Positions 1 through 51,720 of a stretch of DNA of 57,084 bases are shown here, in pieces. Position 1 is the first letter of the stretch; each line of letters opens with the position of its first letter. Made by a program: the position numbers and the translations under genes. Location of the stretch: positions 1-57,084 of IMG/VR virus record IMGVR_UViG_3300010262_000001; one strand, written 5' to 3'. The notes beneath the pieces were generated by a model, which saw only the letters and a program-made list of their open reading frames with translations, made no database searches and was not told the origin of the DNA. This DNA is from a virus.

Positions 1-123
1 AAAAAATAAGTGTTTTTATTAACAGAATATTAATAATTAAGGTTATTTTTTACAATACAACTTGATCTTTGTAATAAATGCAGGCCTTACACTTATCTTT
101 GCACGGAACATCAAGTAGCAATG
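1..123. repeat. Wrap-around copy A, identical to 56962-57084; defines a 56,961-bp circular or terminally redundant unit
   Basis: Same 123 nt (AAAAAATAAGTGTTTTTATTAACAG...CATCAAGTAGCAATG) read at both window ends in the same orientation. Confidence 0.95.
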
Positions 124-310
124 AAGGACAGACTTCTAAATAGTCCGCTATATCCCAAAGTACTCGAACTGTTGGACTTTCTTTCCCGTTTTCTATATAA
201 GAAACATGAGCTTGAGTGATTCCAATAGACATAGCAACCTGTCTTTGGGATTTTCCCCTTAATTTTCTATATTCTTTTATTTTTAATTTATGTTCATTTT
301 TATCTGACAT
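50..310 (-). CDS. XRE-family HTH transcriptional regulator with Cys-rich C-terminal tail
   Basis: GKSQRQVAMSIGITQAHVSYIENGKESPTV is a classic HTH_3 motif. ATG at 310 (MSDKNEH) follows a GGTGG SD; the longer ORF-track start at 343 has none. Confidence 0.8.
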   Translation of the reverse strand: MSDKNEHKLKIKEYRKLRGKSQRQVAMSIGITQAHVSYIENGKESPTVRVLWDIADYLEVCPSLLLDVPCKDKCKACIYYKDQVVL

Positions 311-394
311 TTTTACCACCTTTATTAAAAAAATAGCGCGCACTTTAATTTTAATATCTAATTGTAATTAATAATACAAGAAAGTTGTGGAAAT

Positions 395-409
395 ATAACT
401 GTCAGTTAT
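395..409. promoter_or_regulatory. 15-bp perfect palindrome ATAACTGTCAGTTAT, candidate operator upstream of the 50-310 regulator
   Basis: 7-bp arms around a single central T (too short a loop for an RNA hairpin), in the promoter region of the minus-strand XRE gene. Confidence 0.35.
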
Positions 410-553
410 GCTTTTTTTTATTGCTTAATAATTTATATATAAAAAGTATTTAAAAAAGAAACAATTTATTGATAGAATAAATTTAACATTTTTTCTTTTT
501 ATTAGAATGTTTTTTAAAGTTGAATTAAATGTAGTATTAAAGGGGGATAAATT

Positions 554-709
554 GTGAGAAATACTTTAGGACAAAAATTGGATGGGTTAAATAAAATTAT
601 AAAAACTGAAGGCAATAAAGAGCTTTTTAATAGCATCCTTATTGAATCAACTGAAATTATTAAAGATCATATAGATAGTAAAAAATATAAAATGAAAAAC
701 GCGGGGTAA
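554..709 (+). CDS. Hypothetical 51-aa protein (below ORF-track cutoff)
   Basis: GTG start 6 nt after AGGGGGA SD; open 52 codons (VRNTLGQKLDGLNKIIKTEG...); its stop lies in a terminator hairpin. Confidence 0.45.
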   Translation: MRNTLGQKLDGLNKIIKTEGNKELFNSILIESTEIIKDHIDSKKYKMKNAG

Positions 710-726
710 TTATTCCGCGTTTTTTT
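695..726. terminator. Bidirectional intrinsic terminator between convergent genes
   Basis: AAAAACGCGG (695-704) pairs with CCGCGTTTTT (715-724); A-run before and T-run after. Confidence 0.7.
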
Positions 727-1066
727 CTTTAGATAGTTTTTTTAATAGAACCATTATTTTGCCTGTAATTAATTCTAAATCATCTTCATCTAAGACTGAT
801 GTGTCTATCCCCATTTCTGAGCAAAGCTTATCTAGCTCAGTCCCAAAAGTTTTAACTTCATCGCTATTTTCATCTTCTGTTAGATACTCTACTTTTACAT
901 TTAATGCATTTGCTAAAGATTTTAATACTTCTAAAGTTGGATTTTTAGTTCCTTCTTCGATCTTTACAATATAAGACTGGCTTATTCCACTAAGCTCTGA
1001 TAATTCCCTGCGAGAAAGCCTTTTTTCTTCCCTTATTCTTCTCAGGTTTTCCCCTACTAATTTCAT
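710..1066 (-). CDS. CI-like XRE-family repressor
   Basis: LSRRELSELSGISQSYIVKIEEGTKNPTLEVL HTH_3 motif plus C-terminal extension; SD TAGGAGGT; divergent from a Cro-like gene. Confidence 0.8.
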   Translation of the reverse strand: MKLVGENLRRIREEKRLSRRELSELSGISQSYIVKIEEGTKNPTLEVLKSLANALNVKVEYLTEDENSDEVKTFGTELDKLCSEMGIDTSVLDEDDLELITGKIMVLLKKLSKEKNAE

Positions 1067-1141
1067 TGAAATACCTCCTAATAACTAACGTTAGTATTAA
1101 ATAACGTTAACCAGCTACTAATAATTTTTGTACTAATAGCA

Positions 1142-1290
1142 TTATTTTTTACACTACCAGTATAATAACATAATATTTTTTAAATTTATAGAGAAATAGA
1201 GCGAAAGTAAGATAACTTTAGAAATAGAGAGCTATTTTTACACTGTGAGGGTTACATAAGTTTGAATATTTTACACTGTGGGTGTAAAAT
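1142..1290. promoter_or_regulatory. Immunity switch region: three TTTTACACT(G/A) operator-like repeats and divergent promoters
   Basis: TTTTTTACACTACCAG (1145-1160, followed by TATAAT 1161-1166), TTTTTACACTGTGAGGG (1235-1251), ATTTTACACTGTGGGTG (1268-1284). The last fills the 17-nt spacer of TTGAAT(1262)-TAAAAT(1285). Confidence 0.55.
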
Positions 1291-1315
1291 TAAAACATCG
1301 AAAGGAGGTGATGAA

Positions 1316-1501
1316 ATGAAACTAAAGTCTATTTGTGACTTAAGAGGAATAACCTTTGGAGCATTATCCAAAGAAACAGGCTTATCAGTTAGCTATCTAT
1401 ACACACTAGCTTCTAATGATAAAGTTAATCCTACATTAGATGTCTTAAAAAAACTTAGTAAGGCTTTAGATGTTCCAATTGATTTTCTTATTAAAGAATA
1501 A
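1316..1501 (+). CDS. Cro-like XRE-family HTH regulator (61 aa)
   Basis: ATG 1316 follows AAAGGAGGTG SD; RGITFGALSKETGLSVSYLYTLASNDKVNPTLDVL HTH_3; the upstream TTG ORF-track start is unsupported. Confidence 0.75.
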   Translation: MKLKSICDLRGITFGALSKETGLSVSYLYTLASNDKVNPTLDVLKKLSKALDVPIDFLIKE

Positions 1502-1568
1502 CATTTAAAAACTATTAAATAAATAGAAAGTTACTGGTATTTTAGTAAATAATTTAGGGGGAAAAGCG

Positions 1569-1718
1569 ATGATCACGAAAGAGTTAAGTGTTCGTCACAA
1601 AAGATTTTTAAAAGAACAAAAGTTAAATCCGGAGGATTTTTTATATATAGCGACAGATATGGAAGCTTTTAAATTCCTTCATAAAGAAACTGGAAAAGCA
1701 GTTTGGATAAGGAGGTAA
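1569..1718 (+). CDS. Hypothetical 49-aa protein (below ORF-track cutoff)
   Basis: SD AGGGGGA then ATG; MITKELSVRHKRFLKEQKLNPEDFLYIATDMEAFKFLHKETGKAVWIRR. Confidence 0.5.
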   Translation: MITKELSVRHKRFLKEQKLNPEDFLYIATDMEAFKFLHKETGKAVWIRR

Positions 1719-1723
1719 TTTAA

Positions 1724-1885
1724 ATGACTGAGACAGGAACAATAGTTTTTCAATTTTTAAGTATTATTTCACTTGGTTTCTTATTTTTTTTAGAAGTTAT
1801 AAAAAAAGAGATTAGCAAAGGAAGTTTAACTTCATTAAGATTAGCAGCTTTAGTGGTTATTTTGATTTATGTAAGCAATGTATAG
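1724..1885 (+). CDS. Small hydrophobic membrane protein (53 aa)
   Basis: SD AAGGAGG then ATG 1724; two hydrophobic stretches (IVFQFLSIISLGFLFFL, LRLAALVVILIYV). Confidence 0.5.
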   Translation: MTETGTIVFQFLSIISLGFLFFLEVIKKEISKGSLTSLRLAALVVILIYVSNV

Positions 1886-1898
1886 GGAGGGAATATTG

Positions 1899-3830
1899 AT
1901 GAAAAGTATTATTTTAAAAACTCTGATTCTTAGAAACTTTAAAGGGATTAAAGATTTAAGAGTTGATTTCAATAGAGTTACAGATATATCAGGAGATAAT
2001 GCGGTAGGCAAAACTACTATTTTTGATGCATTCACATGGCTTCTTTTTGATAAGAATAGTCTAGATGCTAAAGATTTTGAGATTAAGACACTAGATAAAA
2101 ACAATAATGTTATCCATGGTCTAGAACATGAAGTTTCAGCTTTACTTAATATTGATGGTGTTGAGAAGAAATTATCTAAAATCTATAAAGAGAAATGGAC
2201 TAAGAAAAGAGGGGAAGCTGAAAAGCAGTTAACAGGCCATACTACAGATTATTACATTGATGATGTACCTGTAAAAAAGGTAGAGTTCCAGGAGGCTATA
2301 GGTAACATAATAGATGAAAAGTTATTTAAGCTTATAACTAATCCGCTATACTTCTCAACTATATTGAATTGGAAAGATAGAAGAAATGTACTTCTATCCA
2401 TAATAGGTGATGTTGATGTAATGGATGTTATAAAAGGGAATAACACACTAAAAGGTTTTGATACCTTGCTAGGTGGAAAAACAGTTGATGATTTAAAGAA
2501 AACCTTAGCAGCTAGAAAGAGAAAAATCAACCAGGATATCAATTCGATTCCAGTTAGGATTGATGAGCTTGATAAATCAATTCTAAACTTAGATTTTGAA
2601 GCTTTAGAGAGTGAGTTAAAACTTAAAAATGAAGAGTTAAAACAAGTCGAAGATAAGCTTTACGATTCTACAAAATTAGGCGATGTAGTTCTAGAAAAGC
2701 AACAGAAGTTATTTAACTTAAAAAGTACGCTTCAAAAAATAGAGAATGAATCTAAGGTTCAAGCGAACAGGCCAAGAGCAGACTTGGAAAGTTTATATAC
2801 AGAAAAGAATTATGAGCTTAAAGATATTTCTAGAGAAAAGTACACTTTAGAGACTAGAAAGAAAGATCTTGAAGAAAAAAGAATTTTTTTAATAGAGAGT
2901 ATTGATTCCTTAAGAAATACATGGCACGAAGAAAATTTAAAAACACTTACTTTTAATGAGAATGAATTTATATGTCCTACTTGTAAAAGAGAGTTTGAAA
3001 CAGATGATATAGAAGCAAAGAAAGAATCTATGTTAGAACAGTTTAACATTAATAAATCAAGAATCTTAAAAGAATTAGGGGATAAAGGTTCTATTAAAAA
3101 AGAAAGACTTCAAAAATTTGAAAAAGAACTATCCGAATGTTCTATTAAACTTGAAGAAATCAAAGCTAAACACAAAGAAGTTGGAAAAGAACTTAATGAT
3201 TTGATGGCTAAAATACTTGATTTCAAACCTTCAATAATACTTGGAGAAGAGTATAAGAAGGTAAGCTGTGAGATAGCAGATCTAGAAGTTGAGATAAATG
3301 ATAATACATCAACTAAAGAGTTGATTTCAAACTTAAGAAGAGAAAAAAATGAGTTAGTTGATGCAATAGATAATATAAAAGCTAAGTTAACTTATAGAGA
3401 AAAGAATAAAGCTACTTTAGAAAGAATAGAAGAGCTTAAAGATGAAGAGAGAAAATTAGCTGAAACTTTAGCTAAAGTTGAAAAAGAAGAGTTCCAATGT
3501 GAAACCTTCATAAAGGCAAAAGTTAAGCTTATGGAAGATAGCATAAACGAAAGGTTCAAGTATGTAAGCTTTAAATTATTTAACACTCTAGTAAATGGAG
3601 CAGTTGAAGAATGTTGCGTAGCAACTGTAAATGGGGTTCCATTCGATAGTGTAAATAATGCAGGTAAGATAAACGCTGGTATAGATATTATTAATACTCT
3701 ATGCGACCACTATGATATAGAATGTCCTGTATTTGTTGATAACGCTGAATCAGTAAATGAGTTATTAGAGTGTAAATCACAAGTTATTAGATTAATTGTA
3801 AGTAAAGATAAAACTTTAGTAATTTCTTAA
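1899..3830 (+). CDS. SMC/Rad50/SbcC-like AAA ATPase with coiled coil and CxxC hook
   Basis: N-terminal Walker A GDNAVGKTT; long charged coiled coil interrupted by FICPTCKREF; C-terminal VFVDNAES Walker B/D-loop; ATG 1899 follows GGGAGGG SD. Confidence 0.8.
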   Translation: MKSIILKTLILRNFKGIKDLRVDFNRVTDISGDNAVGKTTIFDAFTWLLFDKNSLDAKDFEIKTLDKNNNVIHGLEHEVSALLNIDGVEKKLSKIYKEKWTKKRGEAEKQLTGHTTDYYIDDVPVKKVEFQEAIGNIIDEKLFKLITNPLYFSTILNWKDRRNVLLSIIGDVDVMDVIKGNNTLKGFDTLLGGKTVDDLKKTLAARKRKINQDINSIPVRIDELDKSILNLDFEALESELKLKNEELKQVEDKLYDSTKLGDVVLEKQQKLFNLKSTLQKIENESKVQANRPRADLESLYTEKNYELKDISREKYTLETRKKDLEEKRIFLIESIDSLRNTWHEENLKTLTFNENEFICPTCKREFETDDIEAKKESMLEQFNINKSRILKELGDKGSIKKERLQKFEKELSECSIKLEEIKAKHKEVGKELNDLMAKILDFKPSIILGEEYKKVSCEIADLEVEINDNTSTKELISNLRREKNELVDAIDNIKAKLTYREKNKATLERIEELKDEERKLAETLAKVEKEEFQCETFIKAKVKLMEDSINERFKYVSFKLFNTLVNGAVEECCVATVNGVPFDSVNNAGKINAGIDIINTLCDHYDIECPVFVDNAESVNELLECKSQVIRLIVSKDKTLVIS

Positions 3831-3843
3831 GGAGGAATTTAAG

Positions 3844-4758
3844 ATGAGTAATATTCAAACAGTTAAACAAAACACTTTAGCAATAGCAAAAGAAGAAGCG
3901 ATGAATCAAGTAACACAAAAGATAGCAGAGCTTAAAGCTAACAATTCTATAGCTTTTCCACCAACTTATTCAGTAACTAATTCTATAAACTCAGCATGGT
4001 TAATGCTGCAAGATGTAGTTGATAAAAATAAAAATCCAGCTTTAGATGTTTGTTCAAGAAACTCTATAGTAGAAACTCTATACAATATGTGTTTGCAAGG
4101 ATTAAGCCCTGCTAAAAAACAATGCTACTTTGTAGTGTATGGGAAAAAACTTCAACTGATGAGAAGTTATATGGGTACAGTAGCAGTTACTAAGAGGTTA
4201 GAAGGTGTTAAAGATGTCAAAGCTTATTGCATCTATGAAGGGGATATATTTGAAAGAGAATTTGATTTTACAACTGGATCTTTTAAGATAACTAAGTTTG
4301 AACAAGATTTAGATAATCAGGATGTAGAAAAAATTAAAGGTGCCTTTGCAATGATTATAGGAGAAAATGGACCGCTTCATGTAGAAGTTATGACTATGAA
4401 GCAAATCAAAAAGGCATGGGGACAAGGAACTGCTTTTAATTCAGGAAAATCTAAAGCTCACAATGACTTTACAGATGAAATGGCTAAGAAAACAGTTATA
4501 AATAGAGCTTGTAAAATGTTTGCTAATACATCTGATGATAGCGATGTTCTTATAGAAGCATTCAACAATAGTGATAAATCTGATTTTGGTGAAGAAAACC
4601 AAGAAACTCAAAAAACTATGACAGTTAAAGAAGAGATAAGTCAAAATGCTAACTCTAAGGTTATAGACATAGAAGAAGAACCACAAGTACAACAAGAAAT
4701 TATAGTTGATGTTCCAGAAGGTCAAATAAGTATGGCTGATGAAGGATGTCCATTTTAA
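3844..4758 (+). CDS. recT: RecT-family single-strand annealing recombinase
   Basis: QCYFVVYGKKLQLMRSYMGTVAVTKR, HVEVMTMKQIKKAW and DEMAKKTVINRACK resemble RecT; acidic C-terminal tail; SD GGAGG. Confidence 0.85.
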   Translation: MSNIQTVKQNTLAIAKEEAMNQVTQKIAELKANNSIAFPPTYSVTNSINSAWLMLQDVVDKNKNPALDVCSRNSIVETLYNMCLQGLSPAKKQCYFVVYGKKLQLMRSYMGTVAVTKRLEGVKDVKAYCIYEGDIFEREFDFTTGSFKITKFEQDLDNQDVEKIKGAFAMIIGENGPLHVEVMTMKQIKKAWGQGTAFNSGKSKAHNDFTDEMAKKTVINRACKMFANTSDDSDVLIEAFNNSDKSDFGEENQETQKTMTVKEEISQNANSKVIDIEEEPQVQQEIIVDVPEGQISMADEGCPF

Positions 4759-4778
4759 TAGTATAGGAGGGATATAAA

Positions 4779-4955
4779 ATGGAAGAAAAGAGAGCTACTG
4801 AAATAAATTTCGCATTAGGTTTAATTGAAACTATATGTGAAGAAAGTGAAATTGCTTTAATACCTTATACACTAAAGAATGGGCAACAAGTTGTTGCTAT
4901 ACATGATAACCAAAATGGGAAAACGCTTGTGATGACTAAGAATAAGGAGGCTTAA
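4779..4955 (+). CDS. Hypothetical 58-aa protein (below ORF-track cutoff)
   Basis: SD TAGGAGGG then ATG 4779; fills the gap between recT and the next gene. Confidence 0.5.
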   Translation: MEEKRATEINFALGLIETICEESEIALIPYTLKNGQQVVAIHDNQNGKTLVMTKNKEA

Positions 4956-4956
4956 A

Positions 4957-5316
4957 ATGAGGGATTTAACTTATTTAGATAATAAAAGAATTGATATGTT
5001 TGGAGATGGATATTTAGGAGATAGGCATAATGGAGCTTTTAAAATTTACTACAAAGGAATTGATTATATGGTAATAGCTAGTGATGGAGAAGGGTGGGAA
5101 CATGTATCTGTTAGTAGCCGAAATAGGATTCCTTCATGGGAAGTAATGTGTAAAATTAAAGAATTATTCTTTGAAGATGAAGAAGTGGTAATACAGTATC
5201 ACCCTAAGAAATCAGAATATATTAATAATCATCCTAATTGCTTGCATCTTTGGAAACCAATAAATCAAAATATACCAACTCCACCAAGATTTTTAGTAGG
5301 TTTCAAAAATGCTTAA
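4957..5316 (+). CDS. Hypothetical phage protein
   Basis: SD AAGGAGG; tightly packed with neighbours; no motif I can name. Confidence 0.55.
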   Translation: MRDLTYLDNKRIDMFGDGYLGDRHNGAFKIYYKGIDYMVIASDGEGWEHVSVSSRNRIPSWEVMCKIKELFFEDEEVVIQYHPKKSEYINNHPNCLHLWKPINQNIPTPPRFLVGFKNA

Positions 5317-6034
5317 AGTACTTTCAACTGGATCACATGGAAACTGCTACATCTTAGAGGCTGATGGAGAACAACTCCTGCTAGAATGTGGAATACCATA
5401 CAAAAGAATTTTAGAAGGTCTTGAATATGATTTAAGCAAGGTTAAAGGTTGCTTGGTTACACATGAGCATAAGGATCACTGCAAAGCTATAAAAGATATT
5501 CTTAAAAATGGGATTGATGTTTATAGCAGCGCTGGAACTTTAGAAGCTTTAGGAATTGAACATCATAGAGCGCATAGAGTAATAATAGAAAAACAATTTA
5601 AGCTAGGTGGATTTACTATATTACCATTCCACACTCAGCATGATGTTAGAGAACCTATAGGTTTTTTAATAAGCCATAAGGCTCTAGGAAAGGTTTTATT
5701 TGCTACAGATACTTATTACATTCAATATAAATTCAAAGCCTTAAATCACATAATAATTGAATGTAACTATAGCGAAAAAATACTAGAATCCAATGTTGAA
5801 AATGGAAAGGTTCATAAGTGGCTAAAATGCAGGGTTGAAAAATCACATTTTAGTGTAGAAAGCCTAAAGGATTTCTTTAGAGCTAATGACTTAAGTAAAG
5901 TAAAAAATATAGTTCTTATTCATCTAAGTAAAGATAATGGGAATCCAGAATACTTCCAGGAAGAAATAGAAAAGGTAACAGGCTTACCAGTAGTAGTAGC
6001 ACATGATGGTTTAGAAATTAAAGGAGGGATTTAA
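5309..6034 (+). CDS. Metallo-beta-lactamase-fold hydrolase (probable recombination-associated nuclease)
   Basis: VTHEHKDH (HxHxDH) motif, later H and D ligands; overlaps the upstream stop; typical partner of RecT modules. Confidence 0.8.
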   Translation: MLKVLSTGSHGNCYILEADGEQLLLECGIPYKRILEGLEYDLSKVKGCLVTHEHKDHCKAIKDILKNGIDVYSSAGTLEALGIEHHRAHRVIIEKQFKLGGFTILPFHTQHDVREPIGFLISHKALGKVLFATDTYYIQYKFKALNHIIIECNYSEKILESNVENGKVHKWLKCRVEKSHFSVESLKDFFRANDLSKVKNIVLIHLSKDNGNPEYFQEEIEKVTGLPVVVAHDGLEIKGGI

Positions 6035-6214
6035 ATGATTAATTCTATAGGGATTATAGTTAATAAGTTTGGAAAAGAAGAAAACTTCAAAATTAAAAGT
6101 GAAGGAACAGCAGTAAACTTAATGATTGAAGAAGATATAAACGTTCAAATGGACATGAAATCATTTGAAGAGTTAAGAGAAAAACTTAATGACCTTTACA
6201 ACGAGCTTAATTAA
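6035..6214 (+). CDS. Hypothetical 59-aa protein (below ORF-track cutoff)
   Basis: ATG 6035 directly follows the MBL gene stop; AAGGAGGG SD lies inside the end of the MBL gene. Confidence 0.5.
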   Translation: MINSIGIIVNKFGKEENFKIKSEGTAVNLMIEEDINVQMDMKSFEELREKLNDLYNELN

Positions 6215-6220
6215 AAAAGA

Positions 6221-6287
6221 GTACCTTCGCCAAAAGGTACCCACAACTGATAGCTCCTACTGACTGGTAATCTTTCAGGAGCTATCA
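6221..6287 (+). terminator. Two consecutive hairpins closing the recombination operon
   Basis: GTACCTT..AAGGTAC (6221-6240) and GATAGCTCCT..AGGAGCTATC (6249-6287, 10-bp stem); no clean T-run. Confidence 0.4.
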
Positions 6288-6373
6288 CCTTAAATTATAA
6301 AATGTATTATTTAAAAAGTCTAATTACTAAAGTTTATGAAGGATGAAAAGATTTTATACAAGAGGTGAGAAAG

Positions 6374-7270
6374 GTGTCTGATAACAAAAAATACTATTAT
6401 TTGAAGTTGAAAGAAAACTTCTTTGATAGTGCTGAAATTAAAGTTTTAGAGAGTATGCCTAATGGCTATAAATATTCTAACTTACTATTAAAATTATACC
6501 TTAAAGCTTTAAAATTCAACGGAAAATTAAGATTAAATGAGTTTATACCTTACAATCATCAAATGATAGCAGCTGTAACAGGCATTGATATAGACACTGT
6601 TAAAGTAGCATTTGATTTATTTGAACAGTTAAAGCTTATAGAAGTTATGGATGATGGAACTATATATATGCTTGAAATACAAAACTTTATAGGCAAGAGT
6701 TCAACAGAAGCAGATAGAATTAGAGCTTATAGAAATGAGATAGATAACAATAAAAAGAAAGCTTTAAAAGAGGTGGGACAAACTTGTCCACAGGATTCTG
6801 TACAAATGTACGACAAAAGTACACCAGAGTTAGAGTTAGAGTTAGAGAAAGAGTTAGAGATAGATTATTCTTATAGCGAAGCTAGAGAAAAAGAAGTAGC
6901 AGAAATTATGAAATTTTGTCAAAAAAATCAATATAAACTAAAGAAAAGTGATGCTAATCAACTTATAGAAACTTATGGAAGTAACACTTTAAAAAAAGCT
7001 ATAGTAACAACTGTTTCTACTAAAGCTTTTGAAGAAGGGAAAATAAATGGTAAAAACAGTTACTTAATTAAAGTACTAAATGACTTAAGTTCAGAACAAA
7101 AGAAAATAGTAAATATAAAGTATGAAAAAAGAGAACAGTCTAAAGCTAACTTTACTGAAAGAGATGATTATGACTATGACGCTTTAGAAAATGGACTATC
7201 AGGAATAGGTGATAAAGTGCCAGATAGCAGTTCTATAAATGAATTTTTAAGTAAATATAGGGAGGAATAA
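6374..7270 (+). CDS. Phage replisome organizer (N-terminal organizer domain plus DnaD-like C-terminus)
   Basis: SDNKKYYYLKLKENFFDSAEIKVLESMPNGYKYSNLLLKLYL is the typical replisome-organizer N-terminus; GTG 6374 follows a GAGGTGAG SD (ORF track starts at 6365). Confidence 0.75.
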   Translation: MSDNKKYYYLKLKENFFDSAEIKVLESMPNGYKYSNLLLKLYLKALKFNGKLRLNEFIPYNHQMIAAVTGIDIDTVKVAFDLFEQLKLIEVMDDGTIYMLEIQNFIGKSSTEADRIRAYRNEIDNNKKKALKEVGQTCPQDSVQMYDKSTPELELELEKELEIDYSYSEAREKEVAEIMKFCQKNQYKLKKSDANQLIETYGSNTLKKAIVTTVSTKAFEEGKINGKNSYLIKVLNDLSSEQKKIVNIKYEKREQSKANFTERDDYDYDALENGLSGIGDKVPDSSSINEFLSKYREE

Positions 7271-7273
7271 GAA

Positions 7274-7660
7274 ATGGTTTTATTAACAGTTTTAAATATA
7301 TTGGTGTGTGCAGGGACTTTAGTTACAGTTTTAGCTGTTAAAAGAGAGATTAAAGGTTTAGGACAAGAAGTATCTGAGCTTTATGATGTGGTTGAGGAAG
7401 CAGAAAGTGCGGTATATAGAGCTGAGGATAAAATTAAAGCTTTAGATAAAAAGTTCTTGGAGTTAGACAATGGGATTAACTTTATTATAGATGGAAATCA
7501 AGAAATGTTTGGCATTGTTGAAAAGATTGATAAGGATCAGGAGGAAAACTTAGATAATCTTAAAGAGTTTATAGAGAATGAACATGGTAAGCTTCACACT
7601 AAGATAGCTTTCACTCCATTAAAAGTTGTACAAGTAGGAGGTCAAGATGGAAGAGCTTAG
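7274..7660 (+). CDS. N-terminally membrane-anchored coiled-coil protein, function unknown
   Basis: Hydrophobic N-terminus LLTVLNILVCAGTLVTVLAV then a charged helical region; SD GGGAGGA. Confidence 0.55.
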   Translation: MVLLTVLNILVCAGTLVTVLAVKREIKGLGQEVSELYDVVEEAESAVYRAEDKIKALDKKFLELDNGINFIIDGNQEMFGIVEKIDKDQEENLDNLKEFIENEHGKLHTKIAFTPLKVVQVGGQDGRA

Positions 7661-7778
7661 AGCAAAGATGCATGAGTATATAGAAAAGTATGGAGTTTTA
7701 GATCCAAGGACAGTAAAGGTAAGCCAAGAATTGGACATTTATATAGTCCAAGCTACTAAGAAAAAGGGGGAAAAGTAG
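7647..7778 (+). CDS. Spo0E-family aspartyl-phosphate phosphatase-like protein (43 aa, below ORF-track cutoff)
   Basis: MEELRAKMHEYIEKYGVLDPRTVKVSQELDIYIVQ carries the SQELD signature and two-helix layout of Spo0E-like proteins; SD AGGAGG; ATG 7647. Confidence 0.65.
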   Translation: MEELRAKMHEYIEKYGVLDPRTVKVSQELDIYIVQATKKKGEK

Positions 7779-8431
7779 TGAAGCCGATATTATTCAACAC
7801 AAGTATGGTAAGAGCCATCCTTGATGGTGAAAAGACTTGTACTAGGAGAATTATTAAATTACCTAAGCATATCGAAAAACAAAGTAATGGATTATATATA
7901 TTATGTGCTGAAGGTAGCACTTATTCAGATAAAGAGTTTAAAGATGTTGTTGATTATATAAATCCACCTTACAAGGTAGGAGATATTCTTTACGTAAGGG
8001 AAACATGGTTTAAAGGTGATTTACTAAATGATGCTGAAGAGATAGAAAAACAAGGAATAGTTCTTTATAGAGCAGATGATATCAAAAATAATAATTGGGA
8101 TTATGATTCTATAAGATGGAGACCTTCAATTCATATGCCTAAAGAATTAGCAAGGATATTTTTAAAAGTAACAAGTGTAAGAGCTGAAAGATTAAAAGAT
8201 ATTACAGATGAAGGATGTTACCAAGAGGGAATAAGTTGTACAAGCTTTTATGATGAAGCAGAGCATATACAAATAGCAGGAATAGGATTAAATGATTCGT
8301 TAGAGAGAGCAACATTTGGTCTTTTATGGAACAGTACAGTTAAGGAAGATAAATACTCTTGGGAAGGTAATCCTTGGGTATGGGTTATAGAATTTGAAGT
8401 AGAAAATAAAGGGGGAGAAATAAATGAGTAG
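7778..8431 (+). CDS. Conserved phage protein (ASCH/PUA-like fold suspected)
   Basis: N-terminus KPILFNTSMVRAILDGEKTCTRR resembles a widespread phage family often labelled ASCH; GTG start after AAGGGGGA SD. Confidence 0.4.
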   Translation: MKPILFNTSMVRAILDGEKTCTRRIIKLPKHIEKQSNGLYILCAEGSTYSDKEFKDVVDYINPPYKVGDILYVRETWFKGDLLNDAEEIEKQGIVLYRADDIKNNNWDYDSIRWRPSIHMPKELARIFLKVTSVRAERLKDITDEGCYQEGISCTSFYDEAEHIQIAGIGLNDSLERATFGLLWNSTVKEDKYSWEGNPWVWVIEFEVENKGGEINE

Positions 8432-8576
8432 ATTTTCAGAGTGTGTAAAAGAAATTATAACTTGCGTAGAAGAGGGACATGCAGTAAAGGAAACTATAGA
8501 GGTTGTAAAGGAAAACTTAACTAGAAGTGGTTTGATGGAAGTTATGCTAAAGGAAATGGGGTGCTTTAATGAGTAA
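8424..8576 (+). CDS. Hypothetical 50-aa protein (below ORF-track cutoff)
   Basis: ATG 8424 after GGGGGAG SD; overlaps both neighbours by a few nt, consistent with translational coupling. Confidence 0.4.
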   Translation: MSRFSECVKEIITCVEEGHAVKETIEVVKENLTRSGLMEVMLKEMGCFNE

Positions 8577-48855: not shown

Positions 48856-49110
48856 CTATACATTACCATTTAATATATTATCAACTTCACTCAAAGTCTC
48901 ATCATCAGGTATATTAAGGACATTTTCCTTAGTTTCTTTTTCATAGCTTTTTTCTAAATTTTCTTTTTCTTGGATTTTTATTTTCTTTGTGTCTGAATTT
49001 ATCAAATAAGTTACATAAGCGCTAAAATCAAATCCCAGCTCAGCAGCTCTTCTTAATCCTCGCTTTAATATAGCTTCTTCTAAACTTAAATTTCTCTTAA
49101 TTTTTGCCAA
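48856..49110 (-). CDS. parR: ParR-like RHH centromere-binding adaptor
   Basis: Immediately downstream of and overlapping parM; N-terminal AKIKRNLSLEEAILKRGLRRAAELGFDFSAYVTYLI RHH pattern; TTG start after GGGGTGAG SD. Confidence 0.5.
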   Translation of the reverse strand: MAKIKRNLSLEEAILKRGLRRAAELGFDFSAYVTYLINSDTKKIKIQEKENLEKSYEKETKENVLNIPDDETLSEVDNILNGNV

Positions 49111-49996
49111 ACTTACTCACCCCTAATGTGTAGAAAGCTTTAGCATTTGTATATATCGTATCTTTATCTAGTTTCTGTCCTAAATTGTTAGCTAATCTTA
49201 GAGAACCGCCACCTATCCATATACGTTTACTTACATTAAACTCTTTTATAGACTCTAGTCTATTTAATATAAGTCCAGTATGTTGTTTTAAAATTTTCTC
49301 TATTAAAGTATCTATTTCTACAGGATCACCTTTTATATATATAACCTGAGAATCAAGAAGATCATCTGCTCTAAGAACATCATAAGCAATACCGTGTTCA
49401 TTTTTAATTTCAGTAACTAAAGCTTTACCTAAAATGTTCATTCCAAGCTCAAAAGTTTCTAATTTTTTTAATTTTTTGTTGTTAAAATAAGCTACATCAA
49501 CTGTAAATCCACCTACATCTATTACACAAACATCTCCACGAAGCTTTTCAGGTTCTAATAGTAGCACACCTGCTGATTGCGGAAATACTATTACTTCTTT
49601 AATAGTAAAATGTTTTGGTTTACCATTTAATACTATATCTACACTTTTATCTTTTAACTCATTTATTAAAGAATCCTTTTGTGAGTTATAATAAGATGCT
49701 GGAAGTCCAGTTACTATTTTCACGTCATCATCAACAAATTGATCTTCTCCCATAGCCATTGCTACAGCTGTAAATAAACATAGTTTAAAGTTAAGAGAAT
49801 CAATTTTATTTACATTGTTATCATATAAGCTAGTATCACTATTTTCCCCTATTGTATAATCTTTTCCTTTGTACTGTACATGAATTGAATTGCATACATC
49901 TAAAATACCTTCTTGGATAGTGCTCTTAAAGTTTGAACCACCATTTTTTGTCCAAACTTTAGTATGAGAATATCCTACATCTACACCTATTTTCAT
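49097..49996 (-). CDS. parM: ParM/StbA-family actin-like plasmid segregation ATPase
   Basis: MKIGVDVGYSHTKV (phosphate 1), VIDVGGFTVDV (phosphate 2), IWIGGGS (adenosine) motifs; SD AAGGAGAG. Confidence 0.85.
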   Translation of the reverse strand: MKIGVDVGYSHTKVWTKNGGSNFKSTIQEGILDVCNSIHVQYKGKDYTIGENSDTSLYDNNVNKIDSLNFKLCLFTAVAMAMGEDQFVDDDVKIVTGLPASYYNSQKDSLINELKDKSVDIVLNGKPKHFTIKEVIVFPQSAGVLLLEPEKLRGDVCVIDVGGFTVDVAYFNNKKLKKLETFELGMNILGKALVTEIKNEHGIAYDVLRADDLLDSQVIYIKGDPVEIDTLIEKILKQHTGLILNRLESIKEFNVSKRIWIGGGSLRLANNLGQKLDKDTIYTNAKAFYTLGVSKFGKN

Positions 49997-50769: not shown

Positions 50770-51720
50770 ATGTCAGAAAACGCTAGATCAGGTCAATTCA
50801 GAAAAAAGAAAGTCTACTTTACACAAGTAAGTAATGTAGCTTTAAGAGATCCTAAACTTAGTTTGAAAGCAAAAGGCCTATATGCTTTAATACAAAGTTA
50901 TCTTACAATAGAAGATTTTACTTTATATAAGAATACATTGAAGAAGCATCTTAAAGAAGGAGAGAAGGCTTTTGAAAACTCCTGGAAGGAACTAAAAGAT
51001 GCTGCATATCTAATTCAGTACAGAATGCAAGATCCAAAAACAAAACATTTTTACTATGAATATGAATTATTAGATGCTCCAGATGTAGAGCTAGCTAATA
51101 AAGTACATAGTTCTCAAAACAGAAAAAAACATGAAGAAAAAATCCATACCCCTAAAAAGGTAGGTATGGATAAAAAAGATGAAAAAAATAAAAAAGCCAT
51201 ACCTACCAAAAGGGAAGGTATGGATAATGGATATAATGGGAAAGTGGGGGTACATAATAATACTAATACTAATTATACTGACTTAAGTAATACTATGAGT
51301 AATAGTAGTAGTACGGAATCAATAGAGGATTTATATAAATTATTTGAAGAAACATTTGATAAGAAACCTTCTAGTTATATGAAAAATAAACTATTGAAAT
51401 TTATAGATCAAACCAACTTAAAATTTGTTGCTGAAGTTTTACTTTATTGTTCAGAGCATAATGCTAAAGCTCCATCTTACTTATTTAAAACTTTAGAAAA
51501 TTTAATAAACAGAAATATAACTACTATAAAATTATTTAAAGAATCAATTGAAGGTCATTATAAAGAATTAGAAAGTAAAAAGAAATCACAAAAAACAAAG
51601 ACTAATAAAGTGATATCAAGACCGGTGAACTTCACTCAAAGACCTTATACAAGTGAGGATTATTCTAAAATAGAACAAGAATGGCAAGAAGCCTTATGGG
51701 GAGATTCGATTTTCGAGTAA
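50770..51720 (+). CDS. rep: Plasmid replication initiator (N-terminal winged HTH, C-terminal DnaD/DnaB_2-like domain)
   Basis: YFTQVSNVALRDPKLSLKAKGLYALIQSY... wHTH; C-terminal LFEETFDKKPSSYMKNKLLKFID...AKAPSYLFKTLENL DnaD-like; strong SD GAGGAGG; adjacent to the DnaA boxes. Confidence 0.65.
   Translation: MSENARSGQFRKKKVYFTQVSNVALRDPKLSLKAKGLYALIQSYLTIEDFTLYKNTLKKHLKEGEKAFENSWKELKDAAYLIQYRMQDPKTKHFYYEYELLDAPDVELANKVHSSQNRKKHEEKIHTPKKVGMDKKDEKNKKAIPTKREGMDNGYNGKVGVHNNTNTNYTDLSNTMSNSSSTESIEDLYKLFEETFDKKPSSYMKNKLLKFIDQTNLKFVAEVLLYCSEHNAKAPSYLFKTLENLINRNITTIKLFKESIEGHYKELESKKKSQKTKTNKVISRPVNFTQRPYTSEDYSKIEQEWQEALWGDSIFE

Follow-up and report, generated by a model that had tools for sequence, protein, structure and literature searches.

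A minimal Spo0E-family protein encoded in the predicted early operon of a Clostridium perfringens phage-plasmid

The Bacillus subtilis proteins Spo0E, YisI and YnzD are reportedly aspartyl-phosphate phosphatases specific for the phosphorylated form of Spo0A (Spo0A~P), and C-terminal truncations of B. subtilis Spo0E are hyperactive. Here we describe a gene of the same family (Pfam PF09388) that lies on the plus strand of the IMG/VR virus record IMGVR_UViG_3300010262_000001, the whole 57,084-nucleotide (nt) stretch of which, referred to below as the window, reads by its gene content and its relatives as a ~57 kb phage-plasmid of Clostridium perfringens. Like the three B. subtilis proteins, its 43-amino-acid (aa) product matches PF09388, carries the motif SQELD early in the second helix of a predicted helical hairpin, and would operate in a host whose sporulation is started by Spo0A~P. 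Unlike them, it is only 43 aa long (85 for Spo0E, ~56 for YisI and YnzD), is without an N-terminal stretch of helix 1 and the whole of the C-terminal tail, and is encoded on a mobile element rather than on the chromosome. By analogy with the truncated B. subtilis protein, the tail-less phage version may be an unregulated core.

The closest functional precedent in the clostridial class is Spo0E of C. difficile, also a small protein with the SxxxD signature, which represses sporulation in a bacterium without a phosphorelay and contacts the receiver domain of Spo0A at the phosphorylation site, the signature Asp being critical (DiCandia et al., 2024; PMC11115286). That protein differs from the one described here in that it also binds RstA, through its linker surface, and regulates toxin production and motility. 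Viral copies of this brake on the initiation of sporulation have been reported before. Brevibacillus phages carry a spo0E homologue (PMC4909266), and Bernard et al. (2021, 2023) described viral spo0E, abrB and rap genes beside quorum-sensing systems, noted many PF09388 matches in the Gut Phage Database, and proposed that prophage spo0E serves to manipulate, or hijack, host sporulation. Those homologues were singled out because they adjoin a quorum-sensing receptor, whereas none was found near the present gene among the open reading frames (ORFs) scanned with Pfam, which are a part of all ORFs of the window, and the gene is instead embedded in the replication module of a plasmid-prophage. A wider parallel is offered by the SigF/SigG-like sigma factors of phages (Schwartz et al., 2022; PMC9429907) and by phage Rap-Phr systems, likewise phage copies of sporulation regulators of the host that, when expressed, lower spore yield. 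These are unrelated proteins that act at other steps, the sigma factors later and Rap upstream, on Spo0F. To our knowledge clostridia have no Spo0F, so that control of the Rap type would not be open to clostridial phages.

The gene and its landmarks in the window are as follows.

7647 to 7778, plus strand: spo0E-like gene, 43 aa, encoding a minimal Spo0E-family (PF09388) protein (ORF; Pfam score 50.5 bits)
7636 to 7641, plus strand: Shine-Dalgarno sequence AGGAGG, separated from the ATG by 5 nt and contained in the last part of the upstream ORF
7722 to 7736, plus strand: codons for S26-Q-E-L-D30, the SxxxD signature, in the N-terminal half of helix 2

The translation of 7647-7778 is MEELRAKMHEYIEKYGVLDPRTVKVSQELDIYIVQATKKKGEK, followed by a TAG stop, which is exactly the product given by an earlier reading of the sequence alone (the first-pass annotation). 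That annotation had also described a good Shine-Dalgarno sequence and overlaps of a few nucleotides with both neighbors, and was right on each point. The Shine-Dalgarno sequence is unchanged in the relatives pZ1323HCP0073-3 and phiCp-D, the ATG lies within the last 14 nt of an upstream 128-aa ORF (7274-7660), and the last base of the stop codon doubles as the first base of the GTG start of a downstream 217-aa ORF, a 1-nt overlap. In relatives at about 45-98% identity the ORF is intact and of equal length and position. Compared with the phiCp-D copy, it has 14 synonymous and 6 non-synonymous codon differences, giving a ratio of non-synonymous to synonymous divergence (dN/dS) of ~0.03 with dS saturated, the signature in the sequences of a gene under purifying selection. 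Because of the Pfam E-value (2e-13), the intactness in relatives and the mostly synonymous divergence, we regard it as almost certain that the ORF is a real gene of the Spo0E family.

The gene had been put forward as unlisted, which holds for the gene list used at that time and not for public records: the RefSeq Prokaryotic Genome Annotation Pipeline (PGAP) and the phiCp-D GenBank record both call it and name it. RefSeq lists the identical 43-aa protein, under the heading MULTISPECIES, as "aspartyl-phosphate phosphatase Spo0E family protein", present on at least 146 contigs, and the gene at the same position is named "aspartyl-phosphate phosphatase Spo0E (family protein)" in RefSeq plasmids and in phiCp-D. 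The exact sequence also occurs in 283 blocks of an assembly collection, and many of these blocks are gut-metagenome contigs ~55 kb in length. The finding is thus correct but ordinary, already annotated and conceptually anticipated.

Membership of the family is supported by several lines of evidence. The search with the Spo0E-like hidden Markov model (HMM), which the first-pass annotation had called for, was clearly positive: residues 1-37 align with positions 5-41 of the 42 in PF09388 at 50.5 bits (E=2e-13; the gathering score is 23 bits), and on this alignment the protein is little more than the Pfam core. A search of NCBIfam gave no match to a Spo0E model and only a sub-threshold match to MinE, a result that is uninformative rather than contradictory. 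Against PHROGs there was only a weak match (E=5e-4), to the unnamed family phrog_31003, which may explain why the gene goes without a name in phage-centred annotation. We then have the view from a HMMER scan of 1.84 billion cluster representatives, in which a small profile of close relatives served as the query and 287 representatives were retrieved at E<=1e-3. Among the 150 listed, the median length is 52 aa and 143 keep SxxxD, mostly as SQ(E/Q/K/R)LD. All 125 representatives that were aligned match PF09388, and the only positions conserved in at least 90% of them are G16, the turn glycine, and S26, L29 and D30 of the signature motif.

A profile built from the 125-member alignment retrieved 2C0S (E=8.2e-9) and 2BZB (E=7.4e-8) from the PDB, the next match having an E-value of 0.11. 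These two entries are solved Spo0E-like aspartyl-phosphate phosphatases of B. anthracis; the family profile aligns with them over 47 residues, with the YG turn and the SQELD/SRDLD motif in register. They differ from the phage protein in identity (~27%), in length (62-64 aa) and in being chromosomally encoded. A PDB search with the single sequence had placed designed tetratricopeptide repeat (TPR) proteins sharing the letters LDPR at the top, matches that are spurious, and 2C0S at E=0.64, an ambiguity that the family profile resolved. The AlphaFold2 model of the protein has helices at 2-15 and 20-41 (mean predicted local distance difference test score, pLDDT, 87.5), and its top Foldseek match in the PDB is again 2C0S, at a probability of 0.93 and a query-normalised template modelling (TM) score of 0.70. 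The predicted fold is therefore an antiparallel two-helix hairpin with SQELD early in helix 2, in agreement with the earlier description of a two-helix Spo0E-family protein bearing this motif, here placed at S26-D30. At the level of sequence, the protein has all the features that define the family. By analogy, D30 is presumed to be the catalytic Asp or one that contacts Spo0A. In rare relatives the signature Asp is replaced by Asn (P0021 and P0084, with SQELN and SKELN); such proteins are natural equivalents of a D-to-N mutant and could be variants that only bind.

The timing of expression has to be judged from the surroundings of the gene, for which the following features are needed.

710 to 1066, minus strand: CI-like helix-turn-helix (HTH) repressor (HTH_3, 64.7 bits), divergent from the early operon
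1316 to 1501, plus strand: Cro-like HTH gene, first of the rightward operon; relatives have an equivalent 61-aa HTH_3 gene
5309 to 6034, plus strand: metallo-beta-lactamase (MBL)-fold hydrolase
6365 to 7270, plus strand: phage replisome organiser, DnaD-like (PF09681, 110 bits)
7274 to 7660, plus strand: upstream 128-aa gene, function unassigned, with an N-terminus that is hydrophobic by eye
7778 to 8431, plus strand: downstream 217-aa gene, PHROG 874 (function unassigned), GTG start; variable cargo

The spo0E-like gene is ~6.3 kb into a long rightward operon that starts at a switch of the CI/Cro type. Between the two regulatory genes, at 1146-1290, are operator-like repeats (TTTTACACT), which are probably the operators of the lysis-lysogeny switch. 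They comprise three copies of TTTT(T)ACACT, two of which extend to TTTTACACTGTG with a spacing of 33 nt, and one forms a perfect 9-nt palindrome (1268-1290). The gene order is constant in 11 related contigs: repressor (on the minus strand), cro, SMC-like ATPase, RecT, MBL hydrolase, a 59-aa gene, replisome organiser, 128-aa gene and spo0E, and then a variable segment followed by NA37, Bro/ORF6C and RecU. Replisome organiser, 128-aa gene and spo0E form a conserved block, the 128-aa gene standing directly upstream of spo0E in 11 of the 11 contigs. Its product gave no family match above cutoff. Because the last 14 nt of the 128-aa gene overlap the start of spo0E, the two are likely to be translationally coupled.

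From cro through RecU, every gene lies on the plus strand. A simple scan of positions 1-12500 found no terminator-like site on that strand, every such site there being on the minus strand, and promoter-like sites were not enriched in a simple consensus scan (43 observed versus 60 expected from shuffled sequences). These consensus scans gave no convincing promoter or terminator belonging to spo0E itself; one weak promoter-like site (7360-7387, 9 of 12 matches) falls inside the upstream gene. The run of plus-strand genes without a plus-strand terminator, the lack of a promoter excess and the overlaps on both sides together point to co-transcription and translational coupling of spo0E with the early recombination and replication genes. 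Between the two scenarios of the first-pass annotation, this position, as far as gene order can tell, favours expression after derepression over a role in keeping the lysogen vegetative.

In C. perfringens there is no phosphorelay, and orphan kinases phosphorylate Spo0A directly (PMC11210211), so Spo0A itself would be the shortest target for holding a cell vegetative. Starting from the gene, its family, motif, predicted fold, conserved context and accessory distribution, we infer a target, a catalytic activity, a time of expression and a benefit to the phage, and arrive at a model that we consider probable, in which the 43-aa protein is made with the early genes, lowers Spo0A~P and thereby blocks sporulation of the host. 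Within it, the target and timing are less certain than the gene and its family. When the repressor is lifted, or on fresh infection, spo0E would be transcribed and translated with the early genes, in an operon that also encodes the SMC-like ATPase, RecT, the MBL hydrolase and the replisome organiser. The protein would bind the receiver domain of host Spo0A~P, and Asp30, inserted at the phosphorylation site, would cause the phosphoryl group to be removed or blocked. The resulting drop in Spo0A~P would keep the cell vegetative while the phage replicates, so that an infected or induced cell would not commit to sporulation, in which phage production is shut down. Spo0A-dependent traits, sporulation-linked enterotoxin among them, would be suppressed as a side effect.

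That side effect gives the gene its practical interest. Type F disease caused by C. perfringens needs sporulation in the gut, since only sporulating cells make C. perfringens enterotoxin (CPE) and transmission is by spores (PMC11210211). An antagonist of Spo0A~P on a widespread mobile element could therefore shift spore yield and toxin output between otherwise similar strains, and the gene is a compact candidate for linking a common C. perfringens mobile element to the control of sporulation and enterotoxin. It would, in addition, offer a clean case from nature of a phage that keeps its host from going dormant. The concept of phage spo0E, rap, abrB and sigma genes directed against sporulation is already in the literature, and the value of the present gene is that of a compact, testable candidate.

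Several points weigh against this model. In the profile alignment ~10 N-terminal residues of helix 1 are missing relative to the Bacillus proteins, in addition to the whole C-terminal tail, and the binding or catalytic properties of so shortened a protein may differ from theirs. The Foldseek E-value of 0.34 is not significant alone for a hairpin of 43 residues, and the structural match is used here in a supporting role. Since C. difficile Spo0E also binds the RRNPP regulator RstA (PMC11115286), Spo0A need not be the sole partner. The timing is read from gene order and simple consensus scans, and an internal or constitutive promoter may exist. A Spo0E-like ORF lies within 5 kb in only 3 of 80 viral contigs that have a related replisome organiser, for which reason the gene is accessory, and dispensable for the phage life cycle. 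Finally, we found in the literature no activity or expression data for any phage-encoded Spo0E.

The alternative that survives best, although we think it unlikely, is lysogenic conversion, in which weak expression of the gene in the resident plasmid-prophage, driven by read-through or an internal promoter, durably raises the sporulation threshold of carriers, and alters the spore yield, timing and enterotoxin output of the host instead of serving the lytic cycle. Maintenance as a plasmid, for which ParM-like and DnaD/DnaB_2 genes speak, makes gene dosage and leaky expression plausible, the weak promoter-like site in the upstream gene could provide the latter, and the gene resembles a moron in being sporadic cargo beside a variable hot spot; manipulation of host sporulation by prophage spo0E is, moreover, what Bernard et al. 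proposed. However, the gene overlaps both neighbors, which leaves it no intergenic space, shuffled sequence contains more promoter-like sites than the real one, and the operon is a repressor-controlled, rightward one in which spo0E is co-oriented with replication genes, as it is in most relatives with recognisable neighbors. Fewer spores would, in addition, cut the persistence of both the host and its plasmid-prophage.

More doubtful still, and in our judgement improbable, is the idea that the hairpin keeps its fold and does a different job, being non-catalytic or having another partner, for example as a stoichiometric blocker of Spo0A or as a ligand of an RRNPP/TPR-type or other response regulator. 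Its main effect would then fall on the regulation of motility, toxin or biofilm, or on the lysis-lysogeny choice of the phage, and not on sporulation itself. The dual role of C. difficile Spo0E, which binds both Spo0A and RstA and controls toxin and motility, is the best precedent. The 43-aa protein is also shorter than characterised phosphatases, the natural Asn-for-Asp relatives suggest that binding alone can be kept, and spo0E adjoins RRNPP systems in other phages. Against this, the Asp is retained here and in at least 90% of relatives, which favours a catalytic or active-site-directed mechanism, and no TPR- or RRNPP-type receptor was seen among the Pfam-scanned ORFs of the window. Nor does the phage DNA link Spo0A to phage promoters. 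Spo0A directly controls phage phi29; in the window Spo0A boxes are not enriched (TGTCGAA, 0 versus 1.45 expected; TGNCGAA, 6 versus 5.8 expected), and direct control of the phage DNA by Spo0A is unsupported.

That the ORF is a chance one, or a decaying remnant without function, is scarcely credible: it is very short, spurious ORFs of 25-45 aa abound near it in the ORF list of this AT-rich DNA, and 43 codons alone are not beyond chance there, but the Pfam E-value, the strong Shine-Dalgarno sequence, the intact frame at 45-98% identity, the mostly synonymous divergence and the 146 contigs with the exact protein effectively refute this reading already.

The spo0E-like gene is accompanied, in the same operon region of the element, by two other homologues of sporulation-network regulators.

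13645 to 14208, plus strand: 187-aa sigma-70 family factor, SigF/G-like (Pfam regions 2 and 4; PHROG 351, sigma factor)
15507 to 15752, plus strand: 81-aa DNA-binding protein of the AbrB/MazE/SpoVT fold (TIGR01439, AbrB family, 41 bits versus a cutoff of 28.3)

In NCBIfam the sigma factor matches SigB/F/G best (94 bits), then sporulation SigF (87 bits), each with a score far short of the cutoff. It is variable cargo, present in some relatives (L030 and L113) and absent from pZ1323HCP0073-3. In B. subtilis, SigF/G-like sigma factors of phages cut spore yield (PMC9429907). The AbrB-like protein is conserved in all relatives examined, matches the SpoVT N-domain as well, and is labelled an antitoxin in PHROGs. 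In two IMG/VR phages an AbrB-like gene stands directly upstream of the spo0E-like gene (L016, 5326-5559; L017, 5754-5987), an order that suggests a recurring AbrB-like/Spo0E-like pairing. The presence of both proteins on the same element is a more interesting lead than the spo0E gene alone. We can offer only tentatively, as a possibility against which we would bet, that the 43-aa Spo0E, the AbrB/SpoVT-like protein and the SigF/G-like sigma factor make up a sporulation-interference kit of C. perfringens phage-plasmids. If they do, sporulation would be locked out on induction or infection at three levels (Spo0A~P, transition-state repression and the forespore sigma factor), carriage or induction of the element would measurably alter spore yield and sporulation-dependent CPE in food-poisoning strains, and the tail-less minimal Spo0E would be a constitutively active phosphatase free of regulation.

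Similar genes recur elsewhere. Spo0E-like genes of 42-47 aa, at 41-59% identity, were found in 16 IMG/VR contigs and at 3 clostridial prophage loci, and in most loci with a recognisable window homologue nearby they are co-oriented with early genes. The early neighbors at these distant loci are a replisome organiser, an SMC-like ATPase, an MBL hydrolase, SSB or an AbrB-like gene; at three loci (L020-L022) the spo0E-like gene lies between the repressor and the replisome organiser, and at two (L011 and L015) it has no recognisable neighbor. A genome scan for a host chromosomal Spo0E yielded prophage copies alone, from C. amylolyticum and C. ihumii, whose sequences recur among the IMG/VR contigs. 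Short Spo0E-family genes (51-54% identity) are also carried by plasmids of C. botulinum (H12-H14, 43-50 kb) and Paenibacillus peoriae (H15, 36 kb), which are non-mobilizable plasmids of phage-plasmid size in spore formers. Spo0E cargo may thus be common on plasmid-prophages of Clostridium.

The setting on a phage-plasmid, presumed in the first-pass annotation, is borne out by the relatives and the gene content. The region is 96-97% identical to the circular 55-57 kb C. perfringens plasmids NZ_CP148603.1 and NZ_CP143535.1, and ~85% identical to Clostridium phage phiCp-D. Pfam identifies terminase, holin and amidase among the window proteins, portal, capsid and tail genes are annotated in a 96-97% identical relative, and two genes point to replication and partition as a plasmid.

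49097 to 49996: ParM-like actin (ALP_N; Pfam)
50770 to 51720: DnaD/DnaB_2 replication protein (Pfam)

It is because structural and lysis genes of a phage stand beside genes for plasmid replication and partition, and because the annotation of the relative has no integrase, that we assign the window to a phage-plasmid. A one-residue variant of the Spo0E protein occurs in the same gene neighborhood on a 2.18 Mb scaffold (L112), and four contig blocks of >1 Mb have the variant; this points either to occasional integration of the element into the chromosome or to chimeric assembly of these metagenome scaffolds.

The 3′ end of spo0E is an insertion hot spot, the content after the gene varying among related contigs. 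The 217-aa gene is absent from pZ1323HCP0073-3 and phiCp-D, and its junctions lie in the AAAGGGGGA that closes spo0E and also serves as the Shine-Dalgarno sequence of whichever gene comes next. The sequence AAAGGGGGA(A/G)AA flanks the 217-aa gene on both sides (7765-7790 and 8408-8426). The last residues of one 46-aa variant (P0002), GGEINE, are also those of the 217-aa protein, a pattern that fits recombination at the AAAGGGGGA repeat. In another natural variant, of 136 aa (P0007), Spo0E begins at residue ~12 and is preceded by the first ~100 residues of the 128-aa protein encoded upstream. Of the explanations considered for it, a frameshift or fusion with the upstream gene was set aside in favor of a deletion between the similar stretches GAGTTTATAGAGAA and GAGTATATAGAAAA, which fits better and would remove most of helix 1 of Spo0E.

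Some further features of the window were noted in passing. Precomputed tables give the counterparts in relatives of the MBL hydrolase at 5309-6034 the label Anti-Pycsar Apyc1. The window protein reaches 23.6 bits where the cutoff is 50, so neither this identity nor an anti-defence role is claimed, and its sequence is that of a generic MBL hydrolase. Upstream of spo0E, the operon has a single sizeable gap, a 150-nt intergenic region (6214-6365) ahead of the replisome organiser. It contains two hairpins, GAGTACCTT..AAGGTACCC (6219-6242) and GATAGCTCCT..AGGAGCTATC (~6250-6287), for which possible roles are those of a terminator acting on the opposite strand, an origin element or an RNA element. 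At 17367-18515 on the plus strand is a gene for a 382-aa protein of the TnpB / IS605 OrfB type, with HTH_OrfB_IS605, OrfB_IS605 and Cas12f1-like TNB domains. No transposase is annotated in the relative pZ1323HCP0073-3, and the gene is probably an insertion sequence (IS)/TnpB insertion specific to the window copy. The remaining features of this part of the window are these.

15918 to 16595, plus strand: HNH-type homing-endonuclease-like gene (NUMOD4/HNH_3)
18923 to 19546, plus strand: HNH-type homing-endonuclease-like gene (HNH_3)
20537 to 20950, plus strand: HNH-type homing-endonuclease-like gene (HNH)
19656 to 20210: RinA-family late activator

The three HNH-type genes sit between the replication and packaging modules.

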